Assembly: GCA_016934895.1 (NCBI GenBank)
Contig: JAFGRZ010000169.1
Location: 1-32,557, forward strand
DNA length: 32,557 nt
Source of the DNA: Candidatus Aminicenantes bacterium
GTDB taxonomy: Bacteria; Acidobacteriota; Aminicenantia; Aminicenantales; UBA8522
Direction of reading: 5' to 3'
Part shown: positions 63-11,140 of the stretch, in pieces
Layout: every line of letters begins with the position of its first letter
Numbering within the stretch: position 1 is the first letter of the stretch
Made by a program: the position numbers and the translations under genes
Notes under the pieces: model-generated
Told to the model about the DNA's origin: nothing
Database searches by the model: none
The model's input: the letters and a program-made list of their open reading frames with translations, nothing else

Positions 63-488
63 ATGAATGCCATGAGGGTCCAGAGTGAGCTCAAAGAGCT
101 GGACAAAGTCCGCCGGTTTCTGAAGGCCAATTTAGAGAACCTGGAGCTCAGCGAAGAGGATATCTATAAAATCGAGCTCTCGCTCGTCGAGATGTGCACC
201 AATATCATCCGCTACGCCTATCCGCGGGAGAAAGGGGAGATCGCGATCAAGGCCTGGCATGAAAAAGGCGTTTTTTCCCTGGAAATCCGGGACAACGGCG
301 TCCCCTTTGATCCCCGCCAGGTCAAGAGGCCGACCCTCAAGGAGATGATCAACCGGGAGGAAATGGGCGGCCTCGGGATCTTTCTCGCCCGGAAGCTGAT
401 GGACCGGTTTGCGTACCGTCGCGAGGACGGTCAGAACATCTTGACGATGTCCAAGAAAGCCCACGAAAAAAAGGCGAACCGTCAGTAG
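63..488 (+). CDS. RsbW/SpoIIAB-type anti-sigma factor serine protein kinase (GHKL ATPase fold)
   Basis: 141-aa ORF of typical size. N-box-like ELSLVEMCTNIIRYA, G1-like IRDNGVPFD, G2-like GGLGIFLARKLMD. GAGAGG lies 11 nt upstream of the ATG. Confidence 0.8.
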   Translation: MNAMRVQSELKELDKVRRFLKANLENLELSEEDIYKIELSLVEMCTNIIRYAYPREKGEIAIKAWHEKGVFSLEIRDNGVPFDPRQVKRPTLKEMINREEMGGLGIFLARKLMDRFAYRREDGQNILTMSKKAHEKKANRQ

Positions 489-1303
489 AGGACTTCGGCC
501 TCGCTGCTTTTCCCGATCCGCTTGTTGATGTGGTCGATGATCAGGTCTTTCCTCGCCAAAACGGCGTTGATTTCGTCATCCGTCAGATAGCTGCCGATAA
601 AACCTTTGATCTCATCGAAGGTGAGGGCCTTCATTTTCTCGAAGATCTCACGGGGCATGTCCTTTTGCATGAGGCCTTCTTTGTTTTTTTCTCCGTAAGG
701 GATCTGCGTCGTCCATTTCTTTCCGGTCCGGAAACTGCGCGAATGGTCGATCAAGAGGATTCTCCAGTCTTCGGTGATGAGATAGTTGTTCTGGTGGCGG
801 TCCTCGTTGCCGATGAGGTTGTCGAAAAAGCGTTGCAGATTGAGCGCCCTATTCCAGCCGAAAACCTTGATCGGGGGGGTCTTGATCTTTTGCTCGAACT
901 TGGTCTTCATCGTCATTTTGGAGGGAACCCAAAGCTGGCAGGAACCGGGGTTGTTGTGGAATCTTTTCTCGACCGTCGGCGGAACCATGTTGAGACCCAG
1001 GCGCTTGTCGAAGAGGTAGGCGGCGATCTCGTACTTCCAGCCCTCGATATAGCCTTTGACGCGGCCCTGCACATCTTTCCAGAGGGCGTCGTTGGTGATG
1101 CCGTCAAGCTCGAGGGTGAGACGCCAGGGATTGGTAACGGCTTCCGATTTGATCTGCTCATCTTTGACAATGTCGGCGTTGATGAGAAACTCCTCCCACT
1201 TCGCCCTCTCGGCGATTTCCTCGGGTGTGAATTGGGCGAAACAGGGGACCAGCGAGGCGAGGAAGATGATCCCGAACGATGCAACCTTCATTCTCTTTTT
1301 CAT
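482..1303 (-). CDS. Exported PI3/PI4-kinase-fold protein, paralog 1 (catalytic motifs intact)
   Basis: 273 aa with SD AAGGAGG before ATG 1303. Signal peptide MKKRMKVASFGIIFLASLVPCFAQ|F. Motifs ALWKDV, WKYEIAAYLFDKRLGLNMVPPTVEKR, GSCQLWV, IGNEDRHQNNYLI (DRHxxN catalytic loop) and LLIDHSRSF (DFG-equivalent). Paralog of 1337-2173 and 3264-4058. Confidence 0.75.
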   Translation of the reverse strand: MKKRMKVASFGIIFLASLVPCFAQFTPEEIAERAKWEEFLINADIVKDEQIKSEAVTNPWRLTLELDGITNDALWKDVQGRVKGYIEGWKYEIAAYLFDKRLGLNMVPPTVEKRFHNNPGSCQLWVPSKMTMKTKFEQKIKTPPIKVFGWNRALNLQRFFDNLIGNEDRHQNNYLITEDWRILLIDHSRSFRTGKKWTTQIPYGEKNKEGLMQKDMPREIFEKMKALTFDEIKGFIGSYLTDDEINAVLARKDLIIDHINKRIGKSSEAEVLY

Positions 1304-1336
1304 GATCCCTCCTTTCTTTTCCGGGCCTCGGCGGCC

Positions 1337-2173
1337 TCAGTAGAGGACTTTGGCTTCGCCGTTTGCTTTGATCATCCCTTCGATCTCGGCCAAGAGAAGC
1401 GCTTTGCGCTTGATAACCGCCTCGATCTCTTTGTCGGTCAAGTAGGGGCCGACGGCTTCCTTGACGGACTGAAAATCGAGTTTCTTCACGTTATCGACGA
1501 ACCAGCGGGGAAGCCGCCGGAATAAAATCGCCCTGCCGTCAGACCCCCTTTTGAGTCCGTTGGCTCCGAACAAGAGTTTATCGGTATATTCTTTGCCCGA
1601 ACGGAACGCCTGGGAATGGTCGATCAGGATCATCCGCCAGTCCTTGGTATAGAGAACGTTTTGCTGGGTCCGGTCGTCGTTGGCGACCAGGGAGTCCCAG
1701 GCCCTGGTCAGGTATTTCGTGTTTTCGGTCTGGAGGCGAGCGCTTTCCGGGATCTCGATCCCTTCTTCCACGATCTCGAGAAGGCTGTGCTCGCTGGTGA
1801 CCCAATAGACGAGGGCTCCGGGCTTGCCGTTGAATTCCCTCTCCACGGCCGGAGGGACCATATTGATCCCGAGGAGTTTATCCAGCCTGTAGGCGGCGAT
1901 TTCGTATTGCCAACCTTCGAGGAAGCCGTCGCGCAAACCCTTCGGGTTTTTCCAGCAGGCTTCGGCTTTGGTGTTGTTTCTCTGAAGATAGAACTTGAAG
2001 GGCTTGGTGACGCCCTCTCCGATCTCCTCGGACCGGAGGATTTGGGCCGTTTGCAGGAATTCCTCCCAGAAAGGCCGTTGGGCCACCTCATCCGCCGTGA
2101 ACTGGGCGTCCAGCGGAGGGACGGAGACCATGAAAACGACGAGAAATGGCAAAAGCGCGTTCAGGCGCTTCAT
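1337..2173 (-). CDS. Exported PI3/PI4-kinase-fold protein, paralog 2 (catalytic His replaced: DRTQQN)
   Basis: 278 aa with SD GAGGGAG 6 nt before the ATG. Signal peptide MKRLNALLPFLVVFMVSVPPLDAQ|F. Motifs ACWKNP, WQYEIAAYRLDKLLGINMVPPAVERE, VANDDRTQQNVLY, ILIDHSQAF. Lies 33 nt upstream of paralog 1 on the same strand. Confidence 0.75.
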   Translation of the reverse strand: MKRLNALLPFLVVFMVSVPPLDAQFTADEVAQRPFWEEFLQTAQILRSEEIGEGVTKPFKFYLQRNNTKAEACWKNPKGLRDGFLEGWQYEIAAYRLDKLLGINMVPPAVEREFNGKPGALVYWVTSEHSLLEIVEEGIEIPESARLQTENTKYLTRAWDSLVANDDRTQQNVLYTKDWRMILIDHSQAFRSGKEYTDKLLFGANGLKRGSDGRAILFRRLPRWFVDNVKKLDFQSVKEAVGPYLTDKEIEAVIKRKALLLAEIEGMIKANGEAKVLY

Positions 2174-2223
2174 GATAATCTCCCTCGACAGCCCATTTTT
2201 CCCGAAGTCCTCAAGCGAATCCT

Positions 2224-2252
2224 ATGATATTCATATTGCCCCCAAAAATCAA
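2224..2252 (-). promoter_or_regulatory. sigma70-like promoter for the paralog2-paralog1 operon
   Basis: On the minus strand: TTGATT (2252-2247), 17-nt spacer, TATCAT (2229-2224). It sits about 50 nt upstream of ATG 2173. Confidence 0.45.
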
Positions 2253-2264
2253 CAGCGAAATATT

Positions 2265-2292
2265 TTGACAGAAATCCTGTCGATGTTATAAT
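2265..2292 (+). promoter_or_regulatory. Consensus sigma70 promoter for the beta-propeller lipoprotein gene
   Basis: Perfect TTGACA (2265-2270), 16-nt spacer, perfect TATAAT (2287-2292). It is back-to-back with the minus-strand promoter at 2224-2252. Confidence 0.6.
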
Positions 2293-2378
2293 TTCCGCCT
2301 TCATGCCCCCCGGTGTTGACGGATTGTGGGAAAAGAGAGATTCGGGGCAAAAGGCCCATCTCAAAGAAAGGCGCACAG

Positions 2379-3224
2379 GTGAGATCGAAAAGGTTCGTTG
2401 GGGTGATCCTTCCGTTGATTGCTCTTTCATTCTGTTCGGGTCCGCAGCGCGCGCCGCGCATCCGGTTTCCCTATCTGTGGCTGGATGTCCAGGGCTTCGG
2501 CGGGGATATCGACAGGCAACACTTGACCGAACCCTCGGGAATCTCGTACCACCGGCAGAGGGATACGCTTTTTGTCGTGAGCGATGAAGGGGAGATCGCC
2601 GAGATCAGGAGAGACGGGACCCCGGTCGCCAATACCAAGGTCAGGGGGGACCTGGAGTCCGTCGCCGTCGTCCCGGAAACGGGACTTGTCTATATCGGCA
2701 TCGAAGGGGATGATGTCATTCTCGAGTTCGATCCCGTCAAGGGGGAGGTCACCCGGCGCTTTCCCATCAACCGGAGCTTCGATGGAGATCCCGATCTCCT
2801 GAAGAAAAAGACGGACGATTATGACAACGGCATCGAGTCCATGGCCTTCGTGCCCGATCCCGCGCACCCGGAAGGCGGGACGTTCTATGTCGGCAACCAG
2901 TGGGACCCGCCGATGATCATGGAGGTGCTCTGTCCCCTGAAATCGAGCCGGGCCGAGGAAGCCGAGGCCCGGATCATCCGGGTCCTGCCGTTCAGGATGG
3001 ATGACCCGGCGGCCATGTATTACGACCCGGTCACGAAGCTTCTCAACGTCGTCAGCGATGCCGATAACATTCTGGTGGAGATCACCCTAGAGGGCAGGCT
3101 GGTCAACGAGTACGCCTTTCCCGGCGACAACCAGGAGGGCGTATGCCGGGATGACGAGGGGTATCTTTACATCGCCCAGGATTCGGGCGGAATCCTCAAG
3201 GTCAAAGACCTGCGCCGGCGCTGA
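2379..3224 (+). CDS. SdiA-regulated / phytase-like beta-propeller lipoprotein
   Basis: The track ORF begins at GTG 2313. I prefer the in-frame GTG at 2379, which has GAAAGG 7 nt upstream. That start gives the lipoprotein signal MRSKRFVGVILPLIALSF|C. The body has SdiA-regulated-domain-like blocks (ISGISYHRQRDTLFVVSDEGEI, GDLESVAVV, GIESMAFVP, GYLYIAQDSGGI). Confidence 0.65.
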   Translation: MRSKRFVGVILPLIALSFCSGPQRAPRIRFPYLWLDVQGFGGDIDRQHLTEPSGISYHRQRDTLFVVSDEGEIAEIRRDGTPVANTKVRGDLESVAVVPETGLVYIGIEGDDVILEFDPVKGEVTRRFPINRSFDGDPDLLKKKTDDYDNGIESMAFVPDPAHPEGGTFYVGNQWDPPMIMEVLCPLKSSRAEEAEARIIRVLPFRMDDPAAMYYDPVTKLLNVVSDADNILVEITLEGRLVNEYAFPGDNQEGVCRDDEGYLYIAQDSGGILKVKDLRRR

Positions 3225-3263
3225 GAACGCCCTCCGCCGCCCGGCTCTCTTCGGAATTCCCGG

Positions 3264-4058
3264 TCAGAAGAGCACCTTCTCCGAGCCCTTCTCAGCGATT
3301 AGGGCCTCGATCTTTTCGAGAATGAGTTTCCTGCGGATGAGGCAGGCCTCGATCTCCTCATTATTGAGGTATCGACTGAGCGCCGCCCTGGCCGCCTCTT
3401 CATCGAATTCGTTGAGACCCTGGTAGAGCTTTTTGGAGCAGGCGGTCAAGGGGCAGCCCGGCAACAATTCGGGGACGGGAGCGAACGCTTCGGAGAAGTC
3501 CACCCGCCAAACCCGCCAATCCTCCGTCTGGATATAGGTGTCATCGAAATTATAACACTCGTCATAGGCGAGGCTCTCGAACACCTTCAACTCCTCCATG
3601 GCGTTGGCGAACGCTCCGGCGTCCGGCGGTTCGATTTTCTTCCGCTTCCGGTCCTTCTCGCGGATGCCGTTTTCAAGGTAGATCTGAAGAGTGCCCTTCC
3701 GCCCGTCGATTTCTCTCTCGACGACGGGAGGGATCCATTCGATGGAGAGAAGCTTACTGAGCTCATAGGCGGCGATGTCGTATCTATAGCTGTCGGCCAT
3801 GGGTTGAGGCCTCGGCCTATCCACATATCTGAAGAGGGCACGTCGGACGGCGCACTCCTCGGCGAATGTGATGATCCAGGGGCTCGTCCGCCCGGGTTCA
3901 TCCTTGCGGATTCCGGCGATCCGGCATTCCCGAAGGGCGGCCTCGATCGCGGTCCATTTGTTCTTCTCTTCAGCGGGCGCCTGGAACCGGGCGGAAATGC
4001 CCGATCCCAGGACGAAAAAGAGAAGAGCGAGAAGTATCGGAGTCGGTGCGGTCTTCAT
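3264..4058 (-). CDS. Exported PI3/PI4-kinase-fold paralog 3 (degenerate catalytic motifs; probable pseudokinase)
   Basis: 264 aa. Signal peptide MKTAPTPILLALLFFVLGSGISAR|F. It keeps YRYDIAAYELSKLLSIEWIPPVVERE, TEDWRVWRVDFSEAF and the C-terminal YLNNEEIEA...KVLF. The Lys motif is ALFRYV, and the catalytic loop is replaced by AYDECYNFDDTYI. Confidence 0.7.
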   Translation of the reverse strand: MKTAPTPILLALLFFVLGSGISARFQAPAEEKNKWTAIEAALRECRIAGIRKDEPGRTSPWIITFAEECAVRRALFRYVDRPRPQPMADSYRYDIAAYELSKLLSIEWIPPVVEREIDGRKGTLQIYLENGIREKDRKRKKIEPPDAGAFANAMEELKVFESLAYDECYNFDDTYIQTEDWRVWRVDFSEAFAPVPELLPGCPLTACSKKLYQGLNEFDEEAARAALSRYLNNEEIEACLIRRKLILEKIEALIAEKGSEKVLF

Positions 4059-5118
4059 TTTCTAGCCCCCATACGTTGAAATATCCGTTTTCAATGATCA
4101 GAGCCGCTGCGGGTCCGCCGTAGGCCTCGGAAATGCCCGTGTCCACGATCCAGACTCTGCCTCCGAAGCGCTGCATTTCCGTGGCCGTCTTGACCAGCTT
4201 GGGTGTGTGGGCGATGATCATTGTCTTGGCGCCGAGGTTACTCAGCGTCGCGTTCAGTTCGTCCTCAAGGTCCTCCTCGGGGACGGTCGCCAGCTCCCGG
4301 TACCAGAGGGGACTGTCCCCTCGATAGATGATCGAGGGCTGGACGATCCTGGGCGGCTGTGAACGCCGATAAGCGTGCCAATAGTCGGCGATTTCCAGGC
4401 GGTAGCGGTCGTTGATCTCCCGGAGCCCCCACCTCGAGTATTTTTCACTGATTCCGCCGTGGACAAAGACGACGTCATTGATTTTGATGGCGACGTTGAG
4501 CCGGCGCAGCCAGTCTCCGTACTCATCGTTGAGATGGATCACATACTTACTTTGGGCGGCCCGGGTTTTTCGGAGCGATTTCCAGAAATCGTCGATCACA
4601 TCTTTCGGCCTGAAGGAGCGGCCCCGGGAGCGAAGCTTGAGAATCTTCTCGGCCAGTGCATCCTCTTGCTGCTTTCGGTAGTCGTCGGGGAGGAAAGAGA
4701 TGAATTGATCGAGCGTAACGGCCTCGGCCATGGTGCTGAAAACGACGCCTGTGAGGTTCATTTCCTCGTGGTTGCCGAGAAGGACGTGGACCTTTCCGCC
4801 CGCCGCCTCCGCCTCTTCCTCCAATCGGCGCAGGAGGTCGAAAATTCGCCGCGCTTCGGGACCGCGGTCCATGACGTCGCCCGTCTGGACGAGGTGGACA
4901 TCTCCGGCGGCCCAGTGGAGATCGCGATCGACAAGGCCGGTGCCCTTGAGGATCTTGACAAAGTTTCTATAGTCGCCGTGAAGGTCGCCGACGACGGCGA
5001 TCCGCTCGACGTCGGTCCATTCATAAGGAATATCGCGCGACGCCGAAAGCCCTGATAAAACAAGCCATAATAACGAGAAAAGACAAAACAGCAGCCGCCT
5101 GGTCCGCGCAGAACGCAT
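3970..5118 (-). CDS. Exported PPP-family Ser/Thr phosphoprotein phosphatase (calcineurin-like metallophosphoesterase)
   Basis: 382 aa. Signal peptide MRSARTRRLLFCLFSLLWLVLSGLSAS. PPP motifs GDLHGD, GDVMDRG, GNHE, VHGG. The last ~31 codons overlap the start of 3264-4058 by 89 nt and look non-native, so the true 3' end may be near 4062 (see finding). Confidence 0.8.
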   Translation of the reverse strand: MRSARTRRLLFCLFSLLWLVLSGLSASRDIPYEWTDVERIAVVGDLHGDYRNFVKILKGTGLVDRDLHWAAGDVHLVQTGDVMDRGPEARRIFDLLRRLEEEAEAAGGKVHVLLGNHEEMNLTGVVFSTMAEAVTLDQFISFLPDDYRKQQEDALAEKILKLRSRGRSFRPKDVIDDFWKSLRKTRAAQSKYVIHLNDEYGDWLRRLNVAIKINDVVFVHGGISEKYSRWGLREINDRYRLEIADYWHAYRRSQPPRIVQPSIIYRGDSPLWYRELATVPEEDLEDELNATLSNLGAKTMIIAHTPKLVKTATEMQRFGGRVWIVDTGISEAYGGPAAALIIENGYFNVWGLENEDRTDSDTSRSSLFRPGIGHFRPVPGAR

Positions 5119-5126
5119 CTCTTTTT

Positions 5127-5154
5127 ATACTAGACTATCCTGAGGATTAGTCAA
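5127..5154 (-). promoter_or_regulatory. Possible sigma70-like promoter for the phosphatase-paralog3 operon
   Basis: On the minus strand: TTGACT (5154-5149), 16-nt spacer, TAGTAT (5132-5127). Only 8 nt separate the -10 element from ATG 5118. Confidence 0.3.
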
Positions 5155-5168
5155 GCCGGACCCTGGAT

Positions 5169-5197
5169 TTGACTCTCAGAAGACGAACTGCTATGCT
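5169..5197 (+). promoter_or_regulatory. sigma70-like promoter for the ABM-fold gene
   Basis: TTGACT (5169-5174), 17-nt spacer, TATGCT (5192-5197). Its position argues against the track start at 5169. Confidence 0.4.
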
Positions 5198-5234
5198 TGC
5201 TTTGATGCGCAAAAGGATGAAGGAGGGAGATCAT

Positions 5235-5528
5235 ATGTACGCACGCGTGACCGTGATCAATGTCAAGCCGGACAAGGTCGACGAGGCCATCGCGCTCTAC
5301 GCGAACAGTGTCGTTCCCGCTGCCAAGTCCCAGCAAGGATTTATCGGGCTCTACCTCCTCTCGGACAAGCCGACGGGAAAGGGCATGGCCATAACCATGT
5401 GGGAGTCGGAAATGGACGCCCTGGCCAATGAGCGCAGCCGCTATTACCAGGAGCAGCTGGTCAAGTTCATCGAGTTTTTTCAGTCCCCGCCGATCCGCGA
5501 GGGTTATGAGATCAGCGTCCGGGCCTGA
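5235..5528 (+). CDS. Antibiotic-biosynthesis-monooxygenase (ABM/Dabb) fold protein
   Basis: AGGAGGGAG at 5221-5229 precedes ATG 5235. The 97-aa product MYARVTVINVKPDKVDEA...MAITMWESEMDALA has the ferredoxin-like ABM pattern. Confidence 0.65.
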   Translation: MYARVTVINVKPDKVDEAIALYANSVVPAAKSQQGFIGLYLLSDKPTGKGMAITMWESEMDALANERSRYYQEQLVKFIEFFQSPPIREGYEISVRA

Positions 5529-5573: not shown

Positions 5574-5602
5574 TTGCCTCTCTCTCTGAATTGGATTATA
5601 TT
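5574..5602 (+). promoter_or_regulatory. sigma70-like promoter for the NYN-LOTUS gene
   Basis: TTGCCT (5574-5579), 17-nt spacer, TATATT (5597-5602). The track start at 5591 lies inside this promoter. Confidence 0.35.
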
Positions 5603-5641
5603 GAGGGACAGCACAAAACATCATCCTCCAGGAGAATCACC

Positions 5642-6409
5642 ATGGTCGAACAATTCGGCGACAGCCAGGCGGCCAAGATCGCCATGCTCATCGACGGGGA
5701 CAACGCCCAGCCGACTCTCATCGGCGGGATCATCACCGAGACGGCCAAGCACGGCGCGATCACGATCCGCCGGGTTTACGGAGACTGGACGACGGCTAAT
5801 ATGGCCGGCTGGAAAAACGTCCTGAATAACTATGCTATCCAGCCCATCCAGCAATTTCGCTATACCGTCGGAAAAAACTCCACGGACAGCGCCATGATCA
5901 TCGATGCCATGGATCTCCTCCACAGCCACCTCGTCAACGGATTCTGCCTCGTTTCGAGCGACAGCGATTACACCCGCCTGGCGACGCGGATCAGGGAAGC
6001 GGGTGTTTTCGTTATGGGGATCGGAAAAACGACCACCCCCAAGGCCTTCGTCAACGCCTGCAACATTTTCATCGTCACCGAGAACCTCTCTCCCAGGCAA
6101 ATCCCCCGCCGGGGAAAAGGGCCGGCCAAAGCGGCCCCTCCTAAAGAGGACAAGCCCAAGGAGCTCGATCCGCTGCCCCTGCTCCGGGGCGCCTATGAAA
6201 TGGCCGTCCAGGAGGACGGCTGGGCGAACCTGGGAACCCTCGGATTCTATCTCCATCAGCTCGACCCGAGCTTTGATCCCCGCACGTACGGCTTCAAACA
6301 GTTGTCTCAGCTCATCAGGAAGCATTCCAACTCGTTTGAGCTCAAGTTCCGGGAAGAAGGCGGGACGACCAACGTCTATATGAGAAGCAAGGAATCGCCC
6401 GCACCCTAG
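5642..6409 (+). CDS. NYN-domain (LabA-like) protein with C-terminal OST-HTH/LOTUS domain
   Basis: AGGAGA lies 6 nt before ATG 5642. NYN blocks: [46 protein letters not shown] basic Pro/Lys linker follows, then a LOTUS-like stretch [33 protein letters not shown]. Confidence 0.75.
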
Positions 6410-7962
6410 GGCTGGACTTCTGAGAGGAAAGAGCGGAGCTTTCCTCCCTTGCTGAAACTTTCCAGCTTCCGGAGCGCCTTGGCTTCGATCTGGCGGATGC
6501 GCTCACGGGTCACCTTGAAGACATCGCCCACTTCTTCCAGAGTGTGCTCCTTGCCGTCAATGAGGCCGAACCGGAGCTTCAGCACCTCGGCCTCTCTCTC
6601 GGTGAGACTGTCCAGAGCCTGCTCGATCTGTTCCCGAAGGCTGCGATGGATCACCGCTTCTTCGGGAGAAGGACCGGTCTTGTCTTCGATGAATTCGCCG
6701 AGCCGGCTGTCCTCTTCGTCCCCCACGGGCGCGTCGAGCGAAACGGATTCCTGGGCGGCCTTGATGATCTCTCTCACCTTGGCGACCGACAAGCCCATTT
6801 TGCGGGCGAGTTCTTCGTGGGTCGGCTCACGTCCTCTGTCCTGGACGCTCGTCTGGATGAGTTTCTTCAGCCGATTGATCGTTTCGACCATGTGCACGGG
6901 GATGCGGATGGTCCTGGCCTGGTCGGCGATCGAGCGCGTGATGGCCTGCTTGATCCACCATGTCGCATAGGTGGAGAATTTGTATCCGCGCCGGTAATCG
7001 AATTTTTCGACCGCGCGCATGAGCCCGATATTTCCCTCCTGGATCAGGTCGAGGAATCCCAGGCCGCGATGGGTGTATTTTTTGGCGATGGAGACCACCA
7101 GCCGGAGGTTGGCCTCAACGAGTTCTTTTTTGGCACGGTCGCTCAACTGTTTCCCCAGGCTGATCTGCCGGAGGATGTCCCCGGACTGCCGGCACGTGAT
7201 CCCGAGCTCATCCCGGCCTTTTCTCAAATCCTTCTTGACCTCGGCGAGCTTCTTGAGGAGTTCCGCGCGTTTCTGCCGGTCCTTGATGCGGCGCAGGCTC
7301 GTCTCCAGTTCCTCCCGGGCTTCGGCCAGTTCACAATAATGCTGGAAGCGGGAACGCATCCGCTCGATGATCATTTCCAGGCGCGTCGGCCAGATGCTGA
7401 GCCGGCCGATGAGCTGGATGATCTTAACGACCAGGCGTCCCCTGGCGAAGACATTCTTTTTCCGGGCCGGGATCTTTCCCAGGACGGAATCGATCTGTTT
7501 GATCTTCCTGAAGACCTTGATGGTGTCCTTTCGCCGGATCTCCAGCCTGTCTTCATCAAGGTCGTCGCCGCAGTCGAAGATATCGGGCATGGCCATGAGA
7601 TCCCGTTTGACCGCCTCTTCCAAGGCAGACATCTCGGTTAAAAGCAGGCGGGTGCGGGTCAGCGCCTTGAGGATGGTTTTCTGACCCTTTTCGATCTGCT
7701 TGGCCAGCCCGATCTCTCCCTGTCGGGTCAAAAGGGAGATGCTTCCCATGTCCCGCAGATAGAGCTTAACCGGATCCGTCGTGATATCGTCGCCTTCGGG
7801 CGGAAGCAGCGCTTCCAGATGTCCGCGAGGTTTGGCGATATGCCGGGCGTCATCCTTGAATAGGCTGGATAATCTTTCGAAATCCGCCTCGATGGATCTC
7901 TTCGTTCGCGAGGACGCCGTCCGGCGTCCTCCTCGGGAAGAGCGTCGTTTCAGACCGGCCAA
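6406..7962 (-). CDS. rpoD: RNA polymerase primary sigma factor (sigma-70)
   Basis: 518 aa. Region 1.2: [21 protein letters not shown]. Region 2: [63 protein letters not shown]. Regions 3 and 4: [30 protein letters not shown] start with GAGG 7 nt upstream. Confidence 0.92.
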
Positions 7963-8089
7963 GTCAAAACCTCATTTCTTGTCGAGTTTCCCATGGCTAT
8001 CGCCCGTAATGAAGAACATCCGCGACCCTTGGAAAACGACTATTTTCATTTTCCCAAAATTCCTAAAAAAAAGCAAAATCTTTGTCTGG

Positions 8090-8119
8090 TTGACATTCCT
8101 CCCCGTCTTTTGATATTAG
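8090..8119 (+). promoter_or_regulatory. sigma70-like (extended -10) promoter for the STAS gene
   Basis: Perfect TTGACA (8090-8095), 18-nt spacer ending in TGa, then TATTAG (8114-8119). It lies in the AT-richer rpoD-STAS divergent region. Confidence 0.4.
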
Positions 8120-8157
8120 CTGGAAGGGAAGGCCCGCTTGAGAGAGGACGGGACGAC

Positions 8158-8499
8158 ATGAAGATATCGGCGAGAGACAGGAACGACATCGTCATCTTCG
8201 ACATGGAGGGGGAGATCAAGCGGTCGGATGTCGCCGAGGTGACCCTCCATCAGCTCGTCAAAGAACAGCTCGACTCGGGCAAGAGGAAGATCGTCCTCAA
8301 TTTCGACCGGGTGGAATTCATCGACAGCTTCGGAGTGGGGGAGATCCTGGCGAGCTACATTTCCACCCACAACCTGGGGGGAAAACTCAAGCTGGTGAAG
8401 ATTTCGCAGAAACTGTATCTCATCTTCCAGGTGACGATGTTGACCAAGGTCCTTGATATCTTCGATGATGAAGAGGCGGCCGTGAAGAGTTTATCATGA
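8158..8499 (+). CDS. STAS-domain anti-sigma factor antagonist (RsbV/SpoIIAA-like)
   Basis: The track ORF starts at 7993, upstream of the promoter. ATG 8158 gives a 113-aa STAS protein, MKISARDRNDIVIFDMEGEI...VEFIDSFGVGEIL. The phosphorylatable Ser sits in the DSFG context. Confidence 0.8.
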   Translation: MKISARDRNDIVIFDMEGEIKRSDVAEVTLHQLVKEQLDSGKRKIVLNFDRVEFIDSFGVGEILASYISTHNLGGKLKLVKISQKLYLIFQVTMLTKVLDIFDDEEAAVKSLS

Positions 8500-8608
8500 G
8501 GGTCAGCGGCCGCCTGGCAGCCCAAAAAAGCCATTGCCGCGCAAGCCGCCCGATCCGGATGGGCGACGAAAAGCATGCCCGGGCGCATGGCCTGATGGCT
8601 GTCCCGGT

Positions 8609-8637
8609 TTGACTTCCGCTCAGCGTATTGATAATTT
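8609..8637 (+). promoter_or_regulatory. Possible promoter directly abutting the transporter start codon
   Basis: TTGACT (8609-8614), 17-nt spacer, TAATTT (8632-8637). An alternative is a 15-nt spacer with GATAAT at 8630-8635. ATG 8645 follows with no SD. Confidence 0.3.
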
Positions 8638-8644
8638 TAATCCA

Positions 8645-11140
8645 ATGAAGCTTGTCGGTATCCGGCCCGGTGAAGAGAAGCTGGCCTTTCTGCTGTTCGG
8701 CTATTTTTTTTTGATCACCACTCCCCACACTGTTATCAAGGCCCTGCGCACGACGGACCTTTTGGTCAAGATGGGGGCCGGGGCTCTCCCGCTTGCCTAT
8801 CTCAGCGCGGCCGTGGTCACCGGTTTGGTCGTCGTCTTTCATTCTAAAATCCAGTCCAAGATTTCCATCCGGATCCTGATCATCGCCAGCCTTGTTTTCT
8901 TTGCCGTCTCCGGGCTGGCCCTGCAGTTCATCCTCCAGACGGAAACCGGCCGGAGAAGCGCCCTCCTTCCTTACATCTATTGGGTCTGGGCCGCCGTCCT
9001 CATCGTCGTGCTCATAACCCATTTCTGGATGACCGTCAACGAGATCTTCAACCCAAGGGAAGCCAAGCGGCTGATCGCCTTTATCAGCAGCGGCGGGATC
9101 CTCGGCGGCATCCTCGGAGGGCTGCTGGCCGGCGTCCTGACCCGGGCGAACCAAGCCGGCCTGCTCCTCCCCCTGGCCTGCGCTCTCCTCCTGGCCTGTA
9201 TATTTGTGGTCCAGGCCGTTTTCCGGGACCGGCAAAGACTCCCGGTGATTGCCAAACCGGTTCCGCCCGGCAAAGTGCAGCCGGAGGCGTCCAAGGTGGG
9301 TTTTAAGGACAGCTTCGATGCCGTCCGCAAGAATTCCTATCTCGTGCTGATCGCCGCCGTCGTCGCCATCGGCGTTATTGTCTCGACCCTCATAGAATTC
9401 CAGTTCTTTTCGGCGGCTTCCGAGAGATACGAGCGCGCCAACGAGATGCAAGCCTTTTTCGGTTTCTTTTTCGCCGGCCTGACGGTCTTTGCCTTTTTCC
9501 TGAACGCTTTTTTGACCGGGAATTTCATAAAGAAGCTGGGTGTCAAGCTCACCGTTCTCCTGACTCCGGCTGTCCTCCTGCTCTGTTCCGTCGGAGTTCT
9601 GATTGCGCCCTTTGGCCTGATTCCGGCGCTCATCATCAAGGGCGGCGATGAAAGCCTGGCCTTCTCTCTCAATCAGACGGTCAGGGAGATTCTTTACATA
9701 CCGGTGGCATCGGCGTTGAAATTCAAAGCCAAGCCGTTCATCGACATGTTCATCAGCCGGGCGGCGAAGGTCGTGGCGGCCATCATCCTTCTCGTTTTCG
9801 CCCTTGTCCTCAACAAGGATGTGGATTATCTCACCCCGATTTTCGATCCCGGTCTGGCGAAGCAGCTGAGCTGGATGGCCATCGCGTTCCTGATCGCCTG
9901 GGGGGTGTTCAGTTTGAGAATCGGCAGGGAATACGTTGACACCATCAATCGGAGCATCAAGTTGAAATGGGACCGGGTTGACCAAAGCGTGATGGAGCAG
10001 ATCGACGTCGATTCCGCCAAGGAGATTTTCGATGCCGTGGAAAGCCGGAATCGAAGCGCTGTTCTCTATGCCATGCACGTGTTTGACCTGTTGCAGCGGG
10101 ACAAATTGACCCCGGAAATCAAGAACATGATTTCCGAAAAGGCCGGGGAAGTCCGGGTTTCCTCGATCAGCGACCTGTTCAATGCCGAAGGGGCGCCCGG
10201 AGTTCCGGAAACCGATGAGGACATTCGGCAGGAAGATCTCGTCACCGATATCCGGGAAATCATGTCGCTGGACGCTTATCAGAAGCTGATGGAAGGACAC
10301 GCGGGAAAGGTTTTGGCGGAAAGCCAGAAATCCGAGGTTGAAAAAATGGAGCTGGCGAAGGCGATCGGGTTGATGAGCCCCGATGCCCCTCTGACCGATC
10401 GCCTCGTGACGTTGATCGATGATCACTCGCCTGATGTCTCCGGCTATGCCCTGAAAAGCGCGGCCAGGCTCAAGAAACAAAACTACCTCCCGGCGATCAT
10501 CCGCAAGCTGGGCAATCCTTTGACCCGGGAAGATGCCGCGAGCGCCCTTCACAAATACGGCCCGGCGGCCATGCCGGCTCTGGAAGGGAGCCTCACGGAC
10601 AGCCGCCAGGACCTGAATTTGAGAAAAGCTGTGGTTGAGACGCTGGCCCGCATCGGGACGAAGGAGGCGGCCTTCGCTCTGGCGAGAGAACTCGATCAGG
10701 GGCGTGGGGAGCTGGACCCGGAAATCATCGACGCCCTGGATCGCATCCGGACGCAAAAAGGAGACGTCCAGTTGCCGGCCCGGTCGGCCAAGAGAAAAAC
10801 CCTTTCACTCGTTCATAGATACTGCCGGATTTTCCTCGACATCCAAGATCTCGGGCCGGGGGAGGACATCGAGACCGCCCGCCGACGGATGGAACGCGAG
10901 CTGGAGATCCTTTTCTCGGACATCTTCAAGTTGCTGGGGCTTTATTATCCTCAGGAAGAGATCCGCAAGGCCTATCAAAACATAGAAACCGGAACCCGAA
11001 ACTCGATCGCGTACGCCATCGAATTGCTCGACAACACGCTGAAAAGAGATATCCGGGACGTTATCATTCCCCTGGTCGAGGACCTGTCTCCTTCGGAAAG
11101 ACGGCGGAGTTTTCAGAAGATTCTCAAGAACTCCCCGTGA
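8645..11140 (+). CDS. TLC/NTT-like (ATP/ADP-translocase family) membrane transporter fused to a C-terminal HEAT-repeat domain
   Basis: I prefer ATG 8645 over the track's TTG at 8534, because the extra 37 aa are Pro/Gly/Arg-rich. The N-terminal ~470 aa are polytopic, with a TLC-like start EEKLAFLLFGYFFLITTPHTVIKALRTTDLLV..GAGALPLAYL. The C-terminal ~350 aa are helical repeats including PBS-lyase/HEAT-like LGNPLTREDAASALHKYGPAAMPAL...RKAVVETLARIGTKEAAFALAREL. Confidence 0.7.
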   Translation: MKLVGIRPGEEKLAFLLFGYFFLITTPHTVIKALRTTDLLVKMGAGALPLAYLSAAVVTGLVVVFHSKIQSKISIRILIIASLVFFAVSGLALQFILQTETGRRSALLPYIYWVWAAVLIVVLITHFWMTVNEIFNPREAKRLIAFISSGGILGGILGGLLAGVLTRANQAGLLLPLACALLLACIFVVQAVFRDRQRLPVIAKPVPPGKVQPEASKVGFKDSFDAVRKNSYLVLIAAVVAIGVIVSTLIEFQFFSAASERYERANEMQAFFGFFFAGLTVFAFFLNAFLTGNFIKKLGVKLTVLLTPAVLLLCSVGVLIAPFGLIPALIIKGGDESLAFSLNQTVREILYIPVASALKFKAKPFIDMFISRAAKVVAAIILLVFALVLNKDVDYLTPIFDPGLAKQLSWMAIAFLIAWGVFSLRIGREYVDTINRSIKLKWDRVDQSVMEQIDVDSAKEIFDAVESRNRSAVLYAMHVFDLLQRDKLTPEIKNMISEKAGEVRVSSISDLFNAEGAPGVPETDEDIRQEDLVTDIREIMSLDAYQKLMEGHAGKVLAESQKSEVEKMELAKAIGLMSPDAPLTDRLVTLIDDHSPDVSGYALKSAARLKKQNYLPAIIRKLGNPLTREDAASALHKYGPAAMPALEGSLTDSRQDLNLRKAVVETLARIGTKEAAFALARELDQGRGELDPEIIDALDRIRTQKGDVQLPARSAKRKTLSLVHRYCRIFLDIQDLGPGEDIETARRRMERELEILFSDIFKLLGLYYPQEEIRKAYQNIETGTRNSIAYAIELLDNTLKRDIRDVIIPLVEDLSPSERRRSFQKILKNSP

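Follow-up and report, generated by a model that had tools for sequence, protein, structure and literature searches.

Among solved structures, the nearest relatives of the protein family considered here are animal secretory-pathway kinases, namely Fam20C, Fam20A and Fam20B, and Fam20 has been treated in the literature as specific to eukaryotes or metazoans (PMC9758233). The roles of Lys271 and Asp478 in Fam20C have been described (PMC5413348), and in Hydra Fam20B the equivalent of the His that follows the catalytic Asp-Arg, His301, hydrogen-bonds the sugar substrate and is non-catalytic (PMC5865150). A second relevant system is the NTT-HEAT proteins, which Major et al. (2017; PMC5381601) described without a function and without a link to kinases or phosphatases.

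We analyzed a window of 32,557 nucleotides from a Candidatus Aminicenantes bacterium (contig JAFGRZ010000169.1), in which three minus-strand open reading frames, paralogues of one family, fall exactly within the span 482-4058. These and the neighboring features are as follows:

482-1303, minus strand: paralogue 1, 273 aa, predicted exported Fam20-like kinase-fold protein with all canonical residues
1337-2173, minus strand: paralogue 2, 278 aa, predicted exported Fam20-like kinase-fold protein, canonical residues kept
2224-2252, minus strand: promoter-like site, upstream of the paralogue 2-paralogue 1 pair (9/12, consensus match only)
2313-3224, plus strand: SdiA-regulated / phytase-like beta-propeller protein, flanked by paralogues 2 and 3
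3264-4058, minus strand: paralogue 3, 264 aa, predicted exported kinase-fold protein without the catalytic Asp-Arg
3970-5118, minus strand: Shelph-type PPP-family metallophosphatase, 382 aa, predicted exported, with GDLHG, GDVMDRG and GNHE
5127-5154, minus strand: promoter-like site, upstream of the phosphatase-paralogue 3 pair (9/12, consensus match only)
8534-11140, plus strand: TLC/NTT nucleotide-transporter-like protein, 868 aa, with C-terminal HEAT repeats

Paralogues 2 and 3 are 41% and 25% identical to paralogue 1, and a search with the family HMM recovered paralogues 1, 2 and 3 (E-values 6e-122, 5e-117 and 6e-98) and no further family members in the window. Paralogues 1 and 2 form an operon pair, and in 73 of 81 genomes the gene immediately upstream of paralogue 1 is paralogue 2. 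Signal-peptide-like N-termini, called with a simple heuristic rather than a dedicated predictor, occur in 116/119, 108/115 and 42/54 full-length orthologues of paralogues 1, 2 and 3, respectively, and all three proteins are thus predicted to be Sec-exported to the periplasm.

The first-pass annotation of this DNA had read the three genes as a graded series running from an active kinase to pseudokinases, and its assignment of a kinase fold is well supported. AlphaFold2 models reached a pLDDT of 90.2 for paralogue 1 and 89.9 for paralogue 3. In Foldseek searches the top 23 matches of paralogue 1 were all Fam20C, Fam20A or Fam20B and the best matches of paralogue 3 were Fam20C and Fam20A, with Fam20 matches at TM 0.60-0.68 normalized to the query, ahead of PI3K/PI4K. 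A profile search against the PDB agreed (Fam20A 1.9e-6, Fam20C 2e-4, Fam20B 4e-4) and aligned the proteins from the Lys to the C-terminus. As modeled, the paralogues are minimal kinase-fold proteins of about 250 residues. They belong to a large, uncharacterized bacterial family of 5393 clusters, whose consensus reads A-x-F-[KRQH] ... [ED]xAAY ... PPxVxR ... NxDR[NHT]xxN ... IDH[ST]RAF.

All of the motifs quoted in that annotation were found at aligned positions, as were the scaffold blocks IAAY...PP.VE and DWR in all three paralogues, and the residues that it named as the Lys, the catalytic Asp and the metal site are homologous to Lys271, the catalytic Asp and Asp478 (DFG-like) of Fam20C:

1070-1087, minus strand: paralogue 1 beta3 Lys motif ALWKDV, aligning to Fam20C ALFKPM
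785-811, minus strand: paralogue 1 catalytic loop GNEDRHQNN, aligning to Fam20 GN(M/A)DRHH
731-754, minus strand: paralogue 1 metal-site (DFG-like) motif LIDHSRSF, aligning to Fam20 HLDN(G/A)
1943-1960, minus strand: paralogue 2 Lys motif ACWKNP
1658-1684, minus strand: paralogue 2 catalytic loop ANDDRTQQN, with Thr replacing His after DR
1604-1627, minus strand: paralogue 2 metal site LIDHSQAF
3540-3566, minus strand: paralogue 3 loop YDECYNFDD, catalytic Asp-Arg absent
3483-3506, minus strand: paralogue 3 metal site RVDFSEAF

Paralogue 1 carries the whole canonical set (K76, E87, E92, N166-x-D168-R169-H170, N173 and D186-H187-S188), and its ALWKDV sits at the end of a predicted strand (69-76). 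The motif pattern holds beyond this genome, in 110-121 orthologues per paralogue. In paralogue 1 orthologues the Lys, the D-R-H and the D-H are each present in 120/120. The same holds in paralogue 2 for the Lys, D-R, final Asn and D-H (121/121 each), and across these orthologues K, E, E, N, D, R, N and D-H-S are all invariant. The His-less DRTQQN of paralogue 2, which had been taken as a sign of decay, is strictly conserved, with Thr in 117/121 orthologues. The loop D, R and N recur family-wide, so that the DRHxxN of paralogue 1 is not coincidental, but the residue after DR varies: Asn is commonest, and His and Thr also occur, with the motifs otherwise intact. Paralogue 2 therefore looks fully competent, because its DRT is fixed, the His is not invariant in the family and the Fam20B equivalent contacts substrate, and it is not an intermediate in a series. 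Its dN/dS (0.14-0.19) differs little from the paralogue 1 value. Since both proteins keep the Lys, both acidic residues (one ahead of the alphaC-like helix and one within it), NxDR...N and D-H-S, we predict that paralogues 1 and 2 are active phosphotransferases, probably kinases, and the His or Thr fixed in each orthologue group points to different substrates rather than partial decay. Family chemistry as a whole may not be classical phosphotransfer, however, because in a large sister clade that retains DRN...N the Lys is replaced by Arg, His or Gln.

Paralogue 3 is a different case. Judging from a crude neighbor-joining tree, on which the clade relations rest, it comes from a separate, old and widespread clade without the catalytic Asp-Arg, and it is predicted to be inactive as a phosphotransferase. 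The one-residue insertion reported in its loop depends on the alignment, and in the large one it falls after the loop. Its Lys position reads ALFRYV, and this Arg had been counted among the losses, but the change is not simple decay. R77 pairs with D94, and the two positions covary among the orthologues (R+D in 72, K+E in 36 and K+D in 2; 72 Arg and 38 Lys overall). Because Arg/Lys covaries with Asp/Glu in this way, the ion pair is being kept up and the Lys-to-Arg change is compensated. Arg is likewise usual here in a large clade whose DRN...N and IDH motifs are intact. The catalytic-Asp position is Cys in 109/110 orthologues and the VDFS Asp is present in 110/110. Among residues of the former loop, Asp166 (109/110), Cys168 (109/110) and Asp173 (105/110) are kept in Aminicenantes, an Asp occupies the catalytic-loop Asn position under selection, and Asp187 is kept in 110/110. 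The conserved Asp166, Cys168 and Asp173 could support a non-canonical activity instead. A dN/dS of 0.15-0.25 indicates purifying selection on paralogue 3 despite the missing Asp-Arg, the outcome of a check that the earlier reading had itself proposed.

The most degenerate copy is indeed the one tied to the phosphatase, as had been noticed, and the proposed co-transcription is supported: the 3' end of the phosphatase gene and the start of paralogue 3 share 89 nt, and for this pair a promoter-like site was found only upstream of the phosphatase gene. The two genes adjoin in 53 of 57 loci, with overlaps mostly of 4-150 nt. They are fused in frame in 11/58 genomes, where the second signal peptide is absent, and at least 15 of 150 family representatives are phosphatase-kinase-like fusions, all with signal peptides. 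The phosphatase (Pfam Metallophos, 5e-13) has a dN/dS of 0.19-0.24, like that of paralogue 3. Given co-production and frequent fusion, paralogue 3 is most likely a partner domain of the phosphatase, which may bind a ligand or nucleotide without phosphotransfer and target or regulate the exported enzyme, much as Fam20A does with Fam20C except that the partner is a phosphatase. Alternatively, paralogue 3 may be active through a relocated or different apparatus, with the Asp at the Asn position or Cys168 serving in an AMPylation- or glutamylation-like reaction. Its conserved Cys168, Asp166, Asp173, Asp187 and ion pair favor this idea, as does the existence of SelO and SidJ, which are cited in PMC7948968 as pseudokinases with alternative chemistry. 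We consider it unlikely, because paralogue 3-like proteins at large differ widely in the loop and share only its final Asp and the VDFSEAF motif, not the Cys or Asp166, and because fusion to a phosphatase suits a partner role.

Other genes extend the cluster. The beta-propeller gene (PF06977, 1.4e-12; PF13449, 4.5e-12) lies at the same place in 32/57 loci and shows the strongest constraint in the cluster (dN/dS 0.10-0.17). The TLC/NTT-HEAT protein (Pfam TLC 7.9e-18, HEAT_2 1.7e-7) has a conserved place near the kinase-like/phosphatase cluster in Aminicenantes; TLC/NTT(-HEAT) genes directly adjoin phosphatase-kinase fusions in distant lineages, and homologues also lie near such modules in metagenome loci. 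The cluster often includes an ATP/ADP-transporter-like gene. Fold, residue patterns, selection, gene coupling and fusion, and synteny are together consistent with the reading that we hold to be probable, namely that predicted-active paralogues 1 and 2 and a non-phosphotransferring paralogue 3 partnered with the phosphatase make up an extracytoplasmic module. Paralogues 1 and 2 would phosphorylate distinct, presumed substrates outside the cytoplasm, and the cluster as a whole would carry out both phosphorylation and dephosphorylation there. The periplasm is generally taken to lack ATP; canonical kinase activity in that compartment would therefore need a nucleotide supply, itself conjectural, and the cluster suggests an extracytoplasmic phosphorylation system that may have its own.

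The substrates of paralogues 1 and 2 could be envelope glycans or lipids rather than proteins, with the propeller and phosphatase acting on the same substrate. Fam20B (xylose) and type II PI4K (lipids) are among the structural neighbors and a propeller of the phytase-like/SdiA-regulated type is conserved in the cluster, but the evidence does not discriminate between substrate classes and the nearest characterized relative of the phosphatase acts on phosphotyrosine; we regard this version as rather improbable. Quite unlikely, in our judgment, is a nucleotide scavenging or signaling system in which extracellular nucleotides are hydrolyzed by an ApaH-like PPP esterase, bound or phosphorylated again by the kinase folds, and taken up through the TLC/NTT protein. 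All characterized NTTs import nucleotides (PMC5381601), TLC genes adjoin, and the best NCBIfam match of the phosphatase is bis(5'-nucleosyl)-tetraphosphatase (1.7e-7, far below cutoff); however, its best PDB relative is far closer, a Shewanella cold-active protein-tyrosine phosphatase (E 3e-31), the kinase fold is nearest to protein and glycan kinases, and periplasmic rephosphorylation would still require a phosphate donor. The graded series, with paralogue 1 as sole active enzyme, paralogue 2 a partly decayed regulator and paralogue 3 dead, has in its favor the Thr of paralogue 2, several altered motif residues in paralogue 3 and the precedent of an active Fam20C with its pseudokinase paralogue Fam20A, but is very improbable in view of the family-wide variation after DR, the substrate-binding Fam20B His, and the invariant catalytic residues and low dN/dS of paralogue 2.

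Among known systems, the proposed extracytoplasmic module resembles Fam20C/Fam20A. Both have the same kinase-fold variant (profile E 2e-6 to 2e-4), collinear ALFK, ExxxxEIAA(F/Y), PPV, GNxDRH and (L/I)D(N/H)(G/S) motifs with C-terminal helices to the end, signal-peptide export from the cytoplasm (here predicted), and an active copy (again predicted here) beside a catalytically impaired paralogue with a nucleotide-site-like pocket. In contrast, the mature bacterial proteins have about 250 aa against a kinase core of at least 350 aa, TM normalized to the target is just 0.40-0.54, identity is 13-16%, and the window proteins fall under the Pfam Fam20C cutoff. The residue lost from the impaired copy is the catalytic Asp here but a Glu in Fam20A, and the partner is a phosphatase here but the kinase Fam20C in the case of Fam20A. 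Fam20B (glycosaminoglycan xylosylkinase, 5xom/5xoo) is the best single-sequence PDB match of paralogue 1 (E 0.027), aligned over EIAAF...PP and FDxLIGNxDRH...(L/I)Dxx(K/R)SF, but is a much larger eukaryotic Golgi enzyme with a defined sugar-binding site. The best curated-family match is TIGR03843 SCO1664, an uncharacterized set of actinobacterial PI3/PI4-kinase-like hypothetical proteins (2.3e-11, 4.5e-8 and 4.8e-4 for paralogues 1-3, over residues ~90-257), but 43.5 bits fall far short of the cutoff of 172.4 bits for that family. PI3_PI4_kinase (PF00454), type II PI4K and HipA-like (PF20613) proteins share a DRxxxN-type loop and a DxG/DxS metal motif. All of these are second-tier Foldseek matches (TM ~0.35-0.5), and 25/150 and 17/150 family representatives have sub-threshold Pfam matches to PF00454 and PF20613, respectively, but they are cytoplasmic lipid or toxin kinases, and the window proteins lie under their Pfam cutoffs.

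The phosphatase shares GDxHG, GDxxDRG and GNHE with the Shelph and Shewanella enzymes (1v73, 2z72), which stand alone, whereas here translational coupling or fusion joins the enzyme to a kinase-fold domain. Finally, the TLC plus HEAT architecture of the 868-aa protein, and of neighbors of the distant fusions, is that of the NTT-HEAT fusions (PMC5381601), and one locus also holds the cNMP-binding gene described there. The association of NTT-HEAT proteins with phosphatase and kinase-like modules is new relative to that study.

The locus carries three related genes for kinase-fold proteins resembling Fam20, which we refer to as paralogues 1, 2, and 3, together with a phosphatase gene coupled to the third. 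The genes discussed first are these:

482-1303, minus strand, paralogue 1, an ORF of 273 aa
1337-2173, minus strand, paralogue 2, an ORF of 278 aa
2313-3224, plus strand, a beta-propeller ORF between paralogues 2 and 3
3264-4058, minus strand, paralogue 3, an ORF of 264 aa
3970-5118, minus strand, the phosphatase ORF, with an 89-nt overlap with the start of paralogue 3
6406-7962, minus strand, rpoD

In a MAFFT alignment of the three proteins, paralogues 2 and 3 are 41% and 25% identical to paralogue 1, and a family HMM searched against the six-frame translation of the window returned exactly three matches (E 6e-122, 5e-117, and 6e-98). The motif strings that the first-pass annotation had quoted for the three proteins were all found at aligned positions, confirming the observation from which it started. 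Long antisense ORFs lie opposite real genes at 530-1525, 1616-2227, and 4375-5055 on the plus strand (331, 203, and 226 aa); because they have no family matches and are typical of GC-rich DNA, we take them to be non-coding.

Judged by sequence against the families' own cutoffs, the paralogues fall outside Pfam Fam20C, PI3_PI4_kinase, HipA_2, and TIGR03843. Matches to Pfam were sub-threshold only, with E values of 0.002 for PI3_PI4_kinase, 0.009 for HipA_2, 0.014 for Fam20C, and 0.018 for FAM198. Paralogue 1 reached 15.5 bits against PF06702 (Fam20C; E 0.014, gathering cutoff 26.8) and 18.5 bits against PF00454 (PI3_PI4_kinase; gathering cutoff 27.1), with no match to either model from the other two, while paralogue 2 reached 15.8 bits against PF20613 (HipA-like kinase; gathering cutoff 27). 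TIGR03843, the SCO1664 family, gave 43.5, 32.7, and 19.5 bits for paralogues 1-3 against an NCBIfam cutoff of 172.4, the best E among them being 2e-11. Because all of these matches are sub-threshold, no existing curated family can take the three proteins.

A relationship to Fam20 emerges from profiles and predicted structures. A single-sequence search of the PDB gave only a marginal match to Fam20B, and significance needed the family profile: built from 147 homologues, it matched PDB sequences of Fam20A (1.9e-6), Fam20C (2e-4), and Fam20B (4e-4) in alignments spanning ALFK, EIAA(F/Y)...PPV, GNxDRH...(L/I)Dxx, and the C-terminal helices as far as the final residues. When AF2 models of paralogue 1 (pLDDT 90.2) and paralogue 3 (pLDDT 89.9, pTM 0.84) were compared with the PDB by Foldseek, the top 23 and top 10 matches, respectively, were exclusively Fam20C/A/B, at E values near 1e-8 and TM scores of 0.60-0.68 normalised to the query, followed by PI3K/PI4K at lower TM. 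The Fam20 kinase core is about 100-150 residues longer than the bacterial proteins, and the TM score normalised to the target is 0.40-0.54. In the model of paralogue 1, Lys76 ends a beta strand, Glu92 lies in the first turn of the next helix, a long helix precedes the DRH loop, and a short strand precedes the IDHS Asp, a predicted order that is the standard kinase topology. As modelled, both paralogues 1 and 3 have a Fam20-type kinase fold.

Equivalents of human Fam20C Lys271, Glu306/Glu311, the DRH Asp, and Asp478 are present in paralogues 1 and 2, the Glu306 equivalence being drawn from spacing only; paralogue 3 has Cys168 in place of the catalytic Asp and Arg in place of the Lys. In Fam20C, Lys271 and Asp478 bind ATP and metal (PMC5413348), and in hydra Fam20B the DRH Asp is the catalytic base, while the His two residues on hydrogen-bonds the xylose substrate (PMC5865150). 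By this literature the residue assignments made at first pass are essentially right, except for the role given to the His.

That exception bears on the interpretation then proposed, a graded series with stepwise loss of catalytic residues from paralogue 1 through paralogue 2 to paralogue 3. The middle step is not borne out, because paralogue 2 keeps K, E, E, N, D, R, N, and D-H-S, without exception in 121 orthologues, and the family varies at the position that follows DR, which is His in paralogue 1. K, D-R-H, and D-H are invariant in 120 orthologues of paralogue 1; those of paralogue 2 share an invariant K, D-R, final N, and D-H, with Thr after DR in 117. A catalytic role for the His of DRH is ruled out by its family-wide variation and by the Fam20B structure paper (PMC5865150). 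We likewise rejected paralogue 2 as a pseudokinase, since it is missing no canonical catalytic residue and the lost His is not family-invariant. Because Asn is the post-DR residue in most family members with otherwise complete motifs, and because the Fam20B counterpart binds substrate, DRT in paralogue 2 would represent a fixed, specificity-type difference and not decay. Against the closest genomes, dN/dS is 0.09-0.14 in paralogue 1 and 0.14-0.19 in paralogue 2; these values, and those below, come from the closest pairs only (dS 0.5-1.1), most pairs being near saturation with a median dS above 1.1. Both proteins are thus predicted, by inference from sequence, to be active enzymes. In 73 of 81 Aminicenantes genomes, the gene immediately upstream of paralogue 1 is paralogue 2. 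Paralogue 2 is present as two tandem copies in Saccharicenans-like genomes (loci L016, L018, L024, L026, L027, and L029), and at four further loci (L042, L052, L055, and L069) the phosphatase, paralogue 3, and paralogue 1 are consecutive, with paralogue 2 several kb off on the other strand.

What remains of the original reading is a contrast between kinase and pseudokinase that is linked to the phosphatase. Across 110 orthologues of paralogue 3, 109 have Cys where the catalytic Asp would be and 105 have Asp in place of the Asn; the Arg and His positions vary, and the VDFS Asp is invariant. Residues of the former active site rank among the protein's better conserved positions. At the Lys position, 72 orthologues have Arg and 38 have Lys; Arg always occurs with Asp at the EIAAY position, and Lys with Glu in all but two (R+D 72, K+E 36, K+D 2); the copy in the window has the R77+D94 form. 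The Lys-to-Arg change had been taken as decay, a misreading in light of this covariation and of an Arg-type clade with intact loops. Arg-Asp for Lys-Glu is instead, by the covariation, a predicted compensatory swap that preserves an ion pair. The suggestion that paralogue 3 be checked for purifying selection despite its lost motifs proved well founded, with dN/dS of 0.15-0.25 in the closest pairs, similar to the 0.19-0.24 of the phosphatase gene. Because dN/dS is low, the former active site is conserved, and the swap is compensatory, paralogue 3 is not decaying; it appears to have lost the phosphotransfer loop and kept a selected pocket.

A catalytic Asp relocated within paralogue 3 is argued against by the wider paralogue 3-like clade, in which the loop is variable, conservation in this region is confined to the final Asp and VDFSEAF, and the loop holds no other conserved Asp than the one at the Asn position. 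Alternatively, the nearly invariant Cys168 may have a lineage-specific role. We favor paralogue 3 as a predicted pseudokinase, with the fold kept and a canonical residue missing without a conserved replacement elsewhere. Its orthologues have five conserved cysteines, at residues 131, 168, 184, 202, and 207, of which C168 takes the place of the catalytic Asp, and C202 with C207 makes up a CxxxxC motif; no more than one Cys is conserved in either paralogue 1 or paralogue 2. C131 and C184 occur together in 90 of the 110 orthologues and are both absent from the window copy (G131 and W184), which suggests that a C131/C184 disulfide was lost there as a pair.

These proteins belong to a very large family. 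An exhaustive profile search gave 5393 clusters (50% identity) at E<=1e-3 and 863 at E<=1e-30; among the homologues listed, no source name gives a characterised function, and a few names are generic automatic labels such as phosphatidylinositol 3- and 4-kinase. The best 150 representatives on the family HMM yield the consensus A-x-F-[K/R/Q/H] ... [E/D]xAAY ... PPxVxR ... L-I-x-N-x-D-R-[N/H/T]-x-x-N ... [L/M]-I-D-H-[S/T]-R-A-F. The genome-collection scan gave only Aminicenantes orthologues of paralogue 1, and the distant clade was taken from a metagenome scan. From a rough neighbour-joining tree and motif states, we drew four clades:

K-type clade: K, E, DR[H/N/T], N, and DH; includes paralogues 1 and 2
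R-type clade: Arg for Lys (or His with Gln for Glu); DRN...N and DH intact
Q-type clade: Gln for Lys and Asn for Glu; DRN intact
Paralogue 3-like clade: Lys/Glu mostly kept; variable loop without DR; Asp for the final Asn; VDFSEAF

Across the family, the state of the Lys position covaries with that of the EIAAY Glu (K-E, R-E, H-Q, Q-N), as expected if the two residues touch each other. In the Q-type clade (P0422-P0508), where the beta3 Lys is Gln and the helix Glu is Asn, DRN...N is kept and IDF often stands for IDH; by its motifs this would be a second, different non-canonical active-site state in the family. Matches to Pfam Fam20C at E<=1e-3 occur in 9 of the 150 representatives, among them P0361 at 29.4 bits. 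In this 671-aa protein, which exceeds the Pfam cutoffs of both HipA_2 and Fam20C, three stretches match the family profile, suggesting tandem kinase-like domains.

The phosphatase has a signal-peptide-like start, the PPP motifs GDLHG44, GDVMDRG80, and GNHE115, and a Pfam Metallophos score of 50.3 bits (cutoff 21.5); among solved structures, the Shewanella cold-active protein-tyrosine phosphatase is its closest relative (E 3e-31). The first-pass annotation was right to tie the most degenerate paralogue to this gene. Of 57 Aminicenantes loci whose flanks were long enough, 53 have the phosphatase just upstream of paralogue 3, usually with an overlap of 4-150 nt, and in 11 of 58 genomes the two form one uninterrupted ORF. 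A gene-calling artefact of the overlap is ruled out by the uninterrupted frame and by a linker in place of the paralogue 3 signal peptide in these 11 genomes. At one locus, L002, tblastn of the 16.8 kb that hold the paralogue 2-paralogue 1 pair found neither paralogue 3 nor the phosphatase. Of the 150 representatives of the wider family, at least 15 have an N-terminal Metallophos domain fused to the kinase-like domain, all with signal peptides, and the fused domains include both paralogue 3-like and R-type. That the genes are fused and translationally coupled argues strongly that the kinase-like domain and the phosphatase work as physical partners; for the kinase-like domain we infer a role in targeting, allosteric control, or ligand sensing.

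The N-termini of all three paralogues are basic, then hydrophobic, and end at an AxA-like site, and the AF2 models of paralogues 1 and 3 show disorder there. By a simple heuristic, signal-peptide-like N-termini are present in 116/119, 108/115, and 42/54 full-length orthologues of paralogues 1, 2, and 3. Because such N-termini are found both in the window and in orthologues, the three proteins are most likely exported.

Several neighboring genes deserve mention. A HATPase_c_2 gene (anti-sigma-factor-type serine kinase; 63-488, plus strand) is convergent with paralogue 1, overlaps its stop by 7 nt, and holds this place in 59 of 81 genomes. The beta-propeller gene at 2313-3224 (SdiA-regulated/phytase-like) is the most constrained in the cluster (dN/dS 0.10-0.17), and at its N-terminus a hydrophobic segment that ends in LSFC may be a lipoprotein signal. 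Twenty nt 5' of this ORF is a perfect sigma-70 consensus (2265-2292, plus strand; TTGACA, 16 nt, TATAAT, extended TG), back to back with a weaker promoter-like site of paralogue 2. An ABM-domain monooxygenase-like gene (5169-5528, plus strand) and a NYN + OST-HTH/LOTUS gene (5591-6409, plus strand) separate the phosphatase from rpoD, and their synteny is limited to the closest genomes.

A search of 80 Aminicenantes genome loci by tblastn with the window's proteins gave the conserved order TLC-HEAT, STAS ... phosphatase, paralogue 3, a 464-aa TLC/MFS transporter, beta-propeller (opposite strand), paralogue 2, paralogue 1, and convergent HATPase_c_2. Of 57 loci, 38 carry the 464-aa gene between paralogues 3 and 1, with paralogue 3 on one side and the propeller or paralogue 2 on the other; the window (gap 3225-3263) and its nearest relatives (L003, L004, L006, and L050) do not have it and keep TLC-HEAT. 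By Pfam cutoff, the 868-aa product of TLC-HEAT (8534-11140, plus strand) is a predicted TLC/NTT nucleotide transporter (PF03219 64.9 bits, 8e-18, cutoff 21; HEAT_2 31.8 bits). A STAS-domain gene (7993-8499, plus strand) precedes it in the same direction with a 35-nt gap, and most Aminicenantes loci retain the two as a pair. Together with the RsbW-like HATPase_c_2 next to paralogue 1, they resemble a partner-switching module, which might control the transporter.

The transporter association extends beyond Aminicenantes. A TLC(-HEAT) gene directly adjoins four of five distant phosphatase-kinase fusions examined, one of which also has a cNMP-binding gene. For R-type genes in metagenomes, 23 loci had 1.5 kb or more of flanking sequence on either side; 12 of them carry a phosphatase, 10 a TLC gene, and 9 both, usually in the order phosphatase, kinase-like, TLC. 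Locus L086 (723-6214) has NTT-HEAT, a cNMP-binding protein, and a phosphatase-kinase fusion consecutively, matching the NTT-HEAT + cNBD arrangement of Major et al. 2017 (PMC5381601) and adding the fusion gene.

The best-supported reading of the cluster is an exported kinase/phosphatase module. Paralogues 1 and 2 would be two competent kinases of different specificity, and the Shelph-type phosphatase would have paralogue 3 as a partner domain, a putative pseudokinase keeping an ion-paired pocket. The structural neighbors would fit protein, glycan, and lipid substrates alike. The association with transporters suggests nucleotide transport across the inner membrane in service of the module, and ATP/ADP exchange is one possibility that would solve ATP supply outside the cytoplasm. 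The main alternative is a nucleotide-scavenging role for the cluster. Returning to the kinase/phosphatase module, a broader and speculative proposal, which we consider rather unlikely as a whole, is that many free-living bacteria carry out extracytoplasmic ATP-dependent phosphorylation and dephosphorylation by exported Fam20-like kinases and a Shelph-type phosphatase with a (pseudo)kinase domain, fed by an adjacent TLC/NTT(-HEAT) antiporter that trades cytoplasmic ATP for periplasmic ADP. The ATP/ADP-exchange step is its least supported part and, taken singly, doubtful.

Our findings extend the Fam20 fold and its catalytic motifs beyond animals to probably exported bacterial proteins, whereas Fam20 has been described as eukaryote/metazoan-specific and its secretory kinases have so far been treated as an animal/eukaryotic invention (PMC9758233). 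If the broader proposal is true, the origin of the fold would be placed in bacteria, and a first function would be given to NTT-HEAT proteins, which are widespread in free-living bacteria with function unknown (PMC5381601). The recurrent TLC/NTT(-HEAT) adjacency offers a testable function for these transporters, a question open since 2017 (PMC5381601), and the transporter hypothesis challenges the idea of a periplasm without ATP-dependent chemistry. Our literature searches, whose coverage was incomplete and in which absence is no proof of novelty, found no description of a bacterial Fam20-like family or its transporter link, no pseudokinase-phosphatase partnership of this kind, and nothing relevant on periplasmic kinases in Aminicenantes or on NTT-HEAT function. 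The family also offers a natural experiment in pseudoenzyme evolution, in which one clade appears to have lost its catalytic loop, kept an ion pair through Lys-Glu to Arg-Asp, and become tied to a phosphatase. More generally, calling pseudokinases from one motif difference (DRH vs DRT, K vs R) is unsafe without family-wide context.

Like Fam20C and Fam20A, the bacterial proteins would be exported kinases of Fam20 fold beside an impaired paralogue; unlike Fam20A, the impaired bacterial copy has another lesion and another partner. Should the proposed ATP supply prove true, such a bacterial system would be the counterpart of Fam20C with the ER/Golgi ATP/ADP exchanger.
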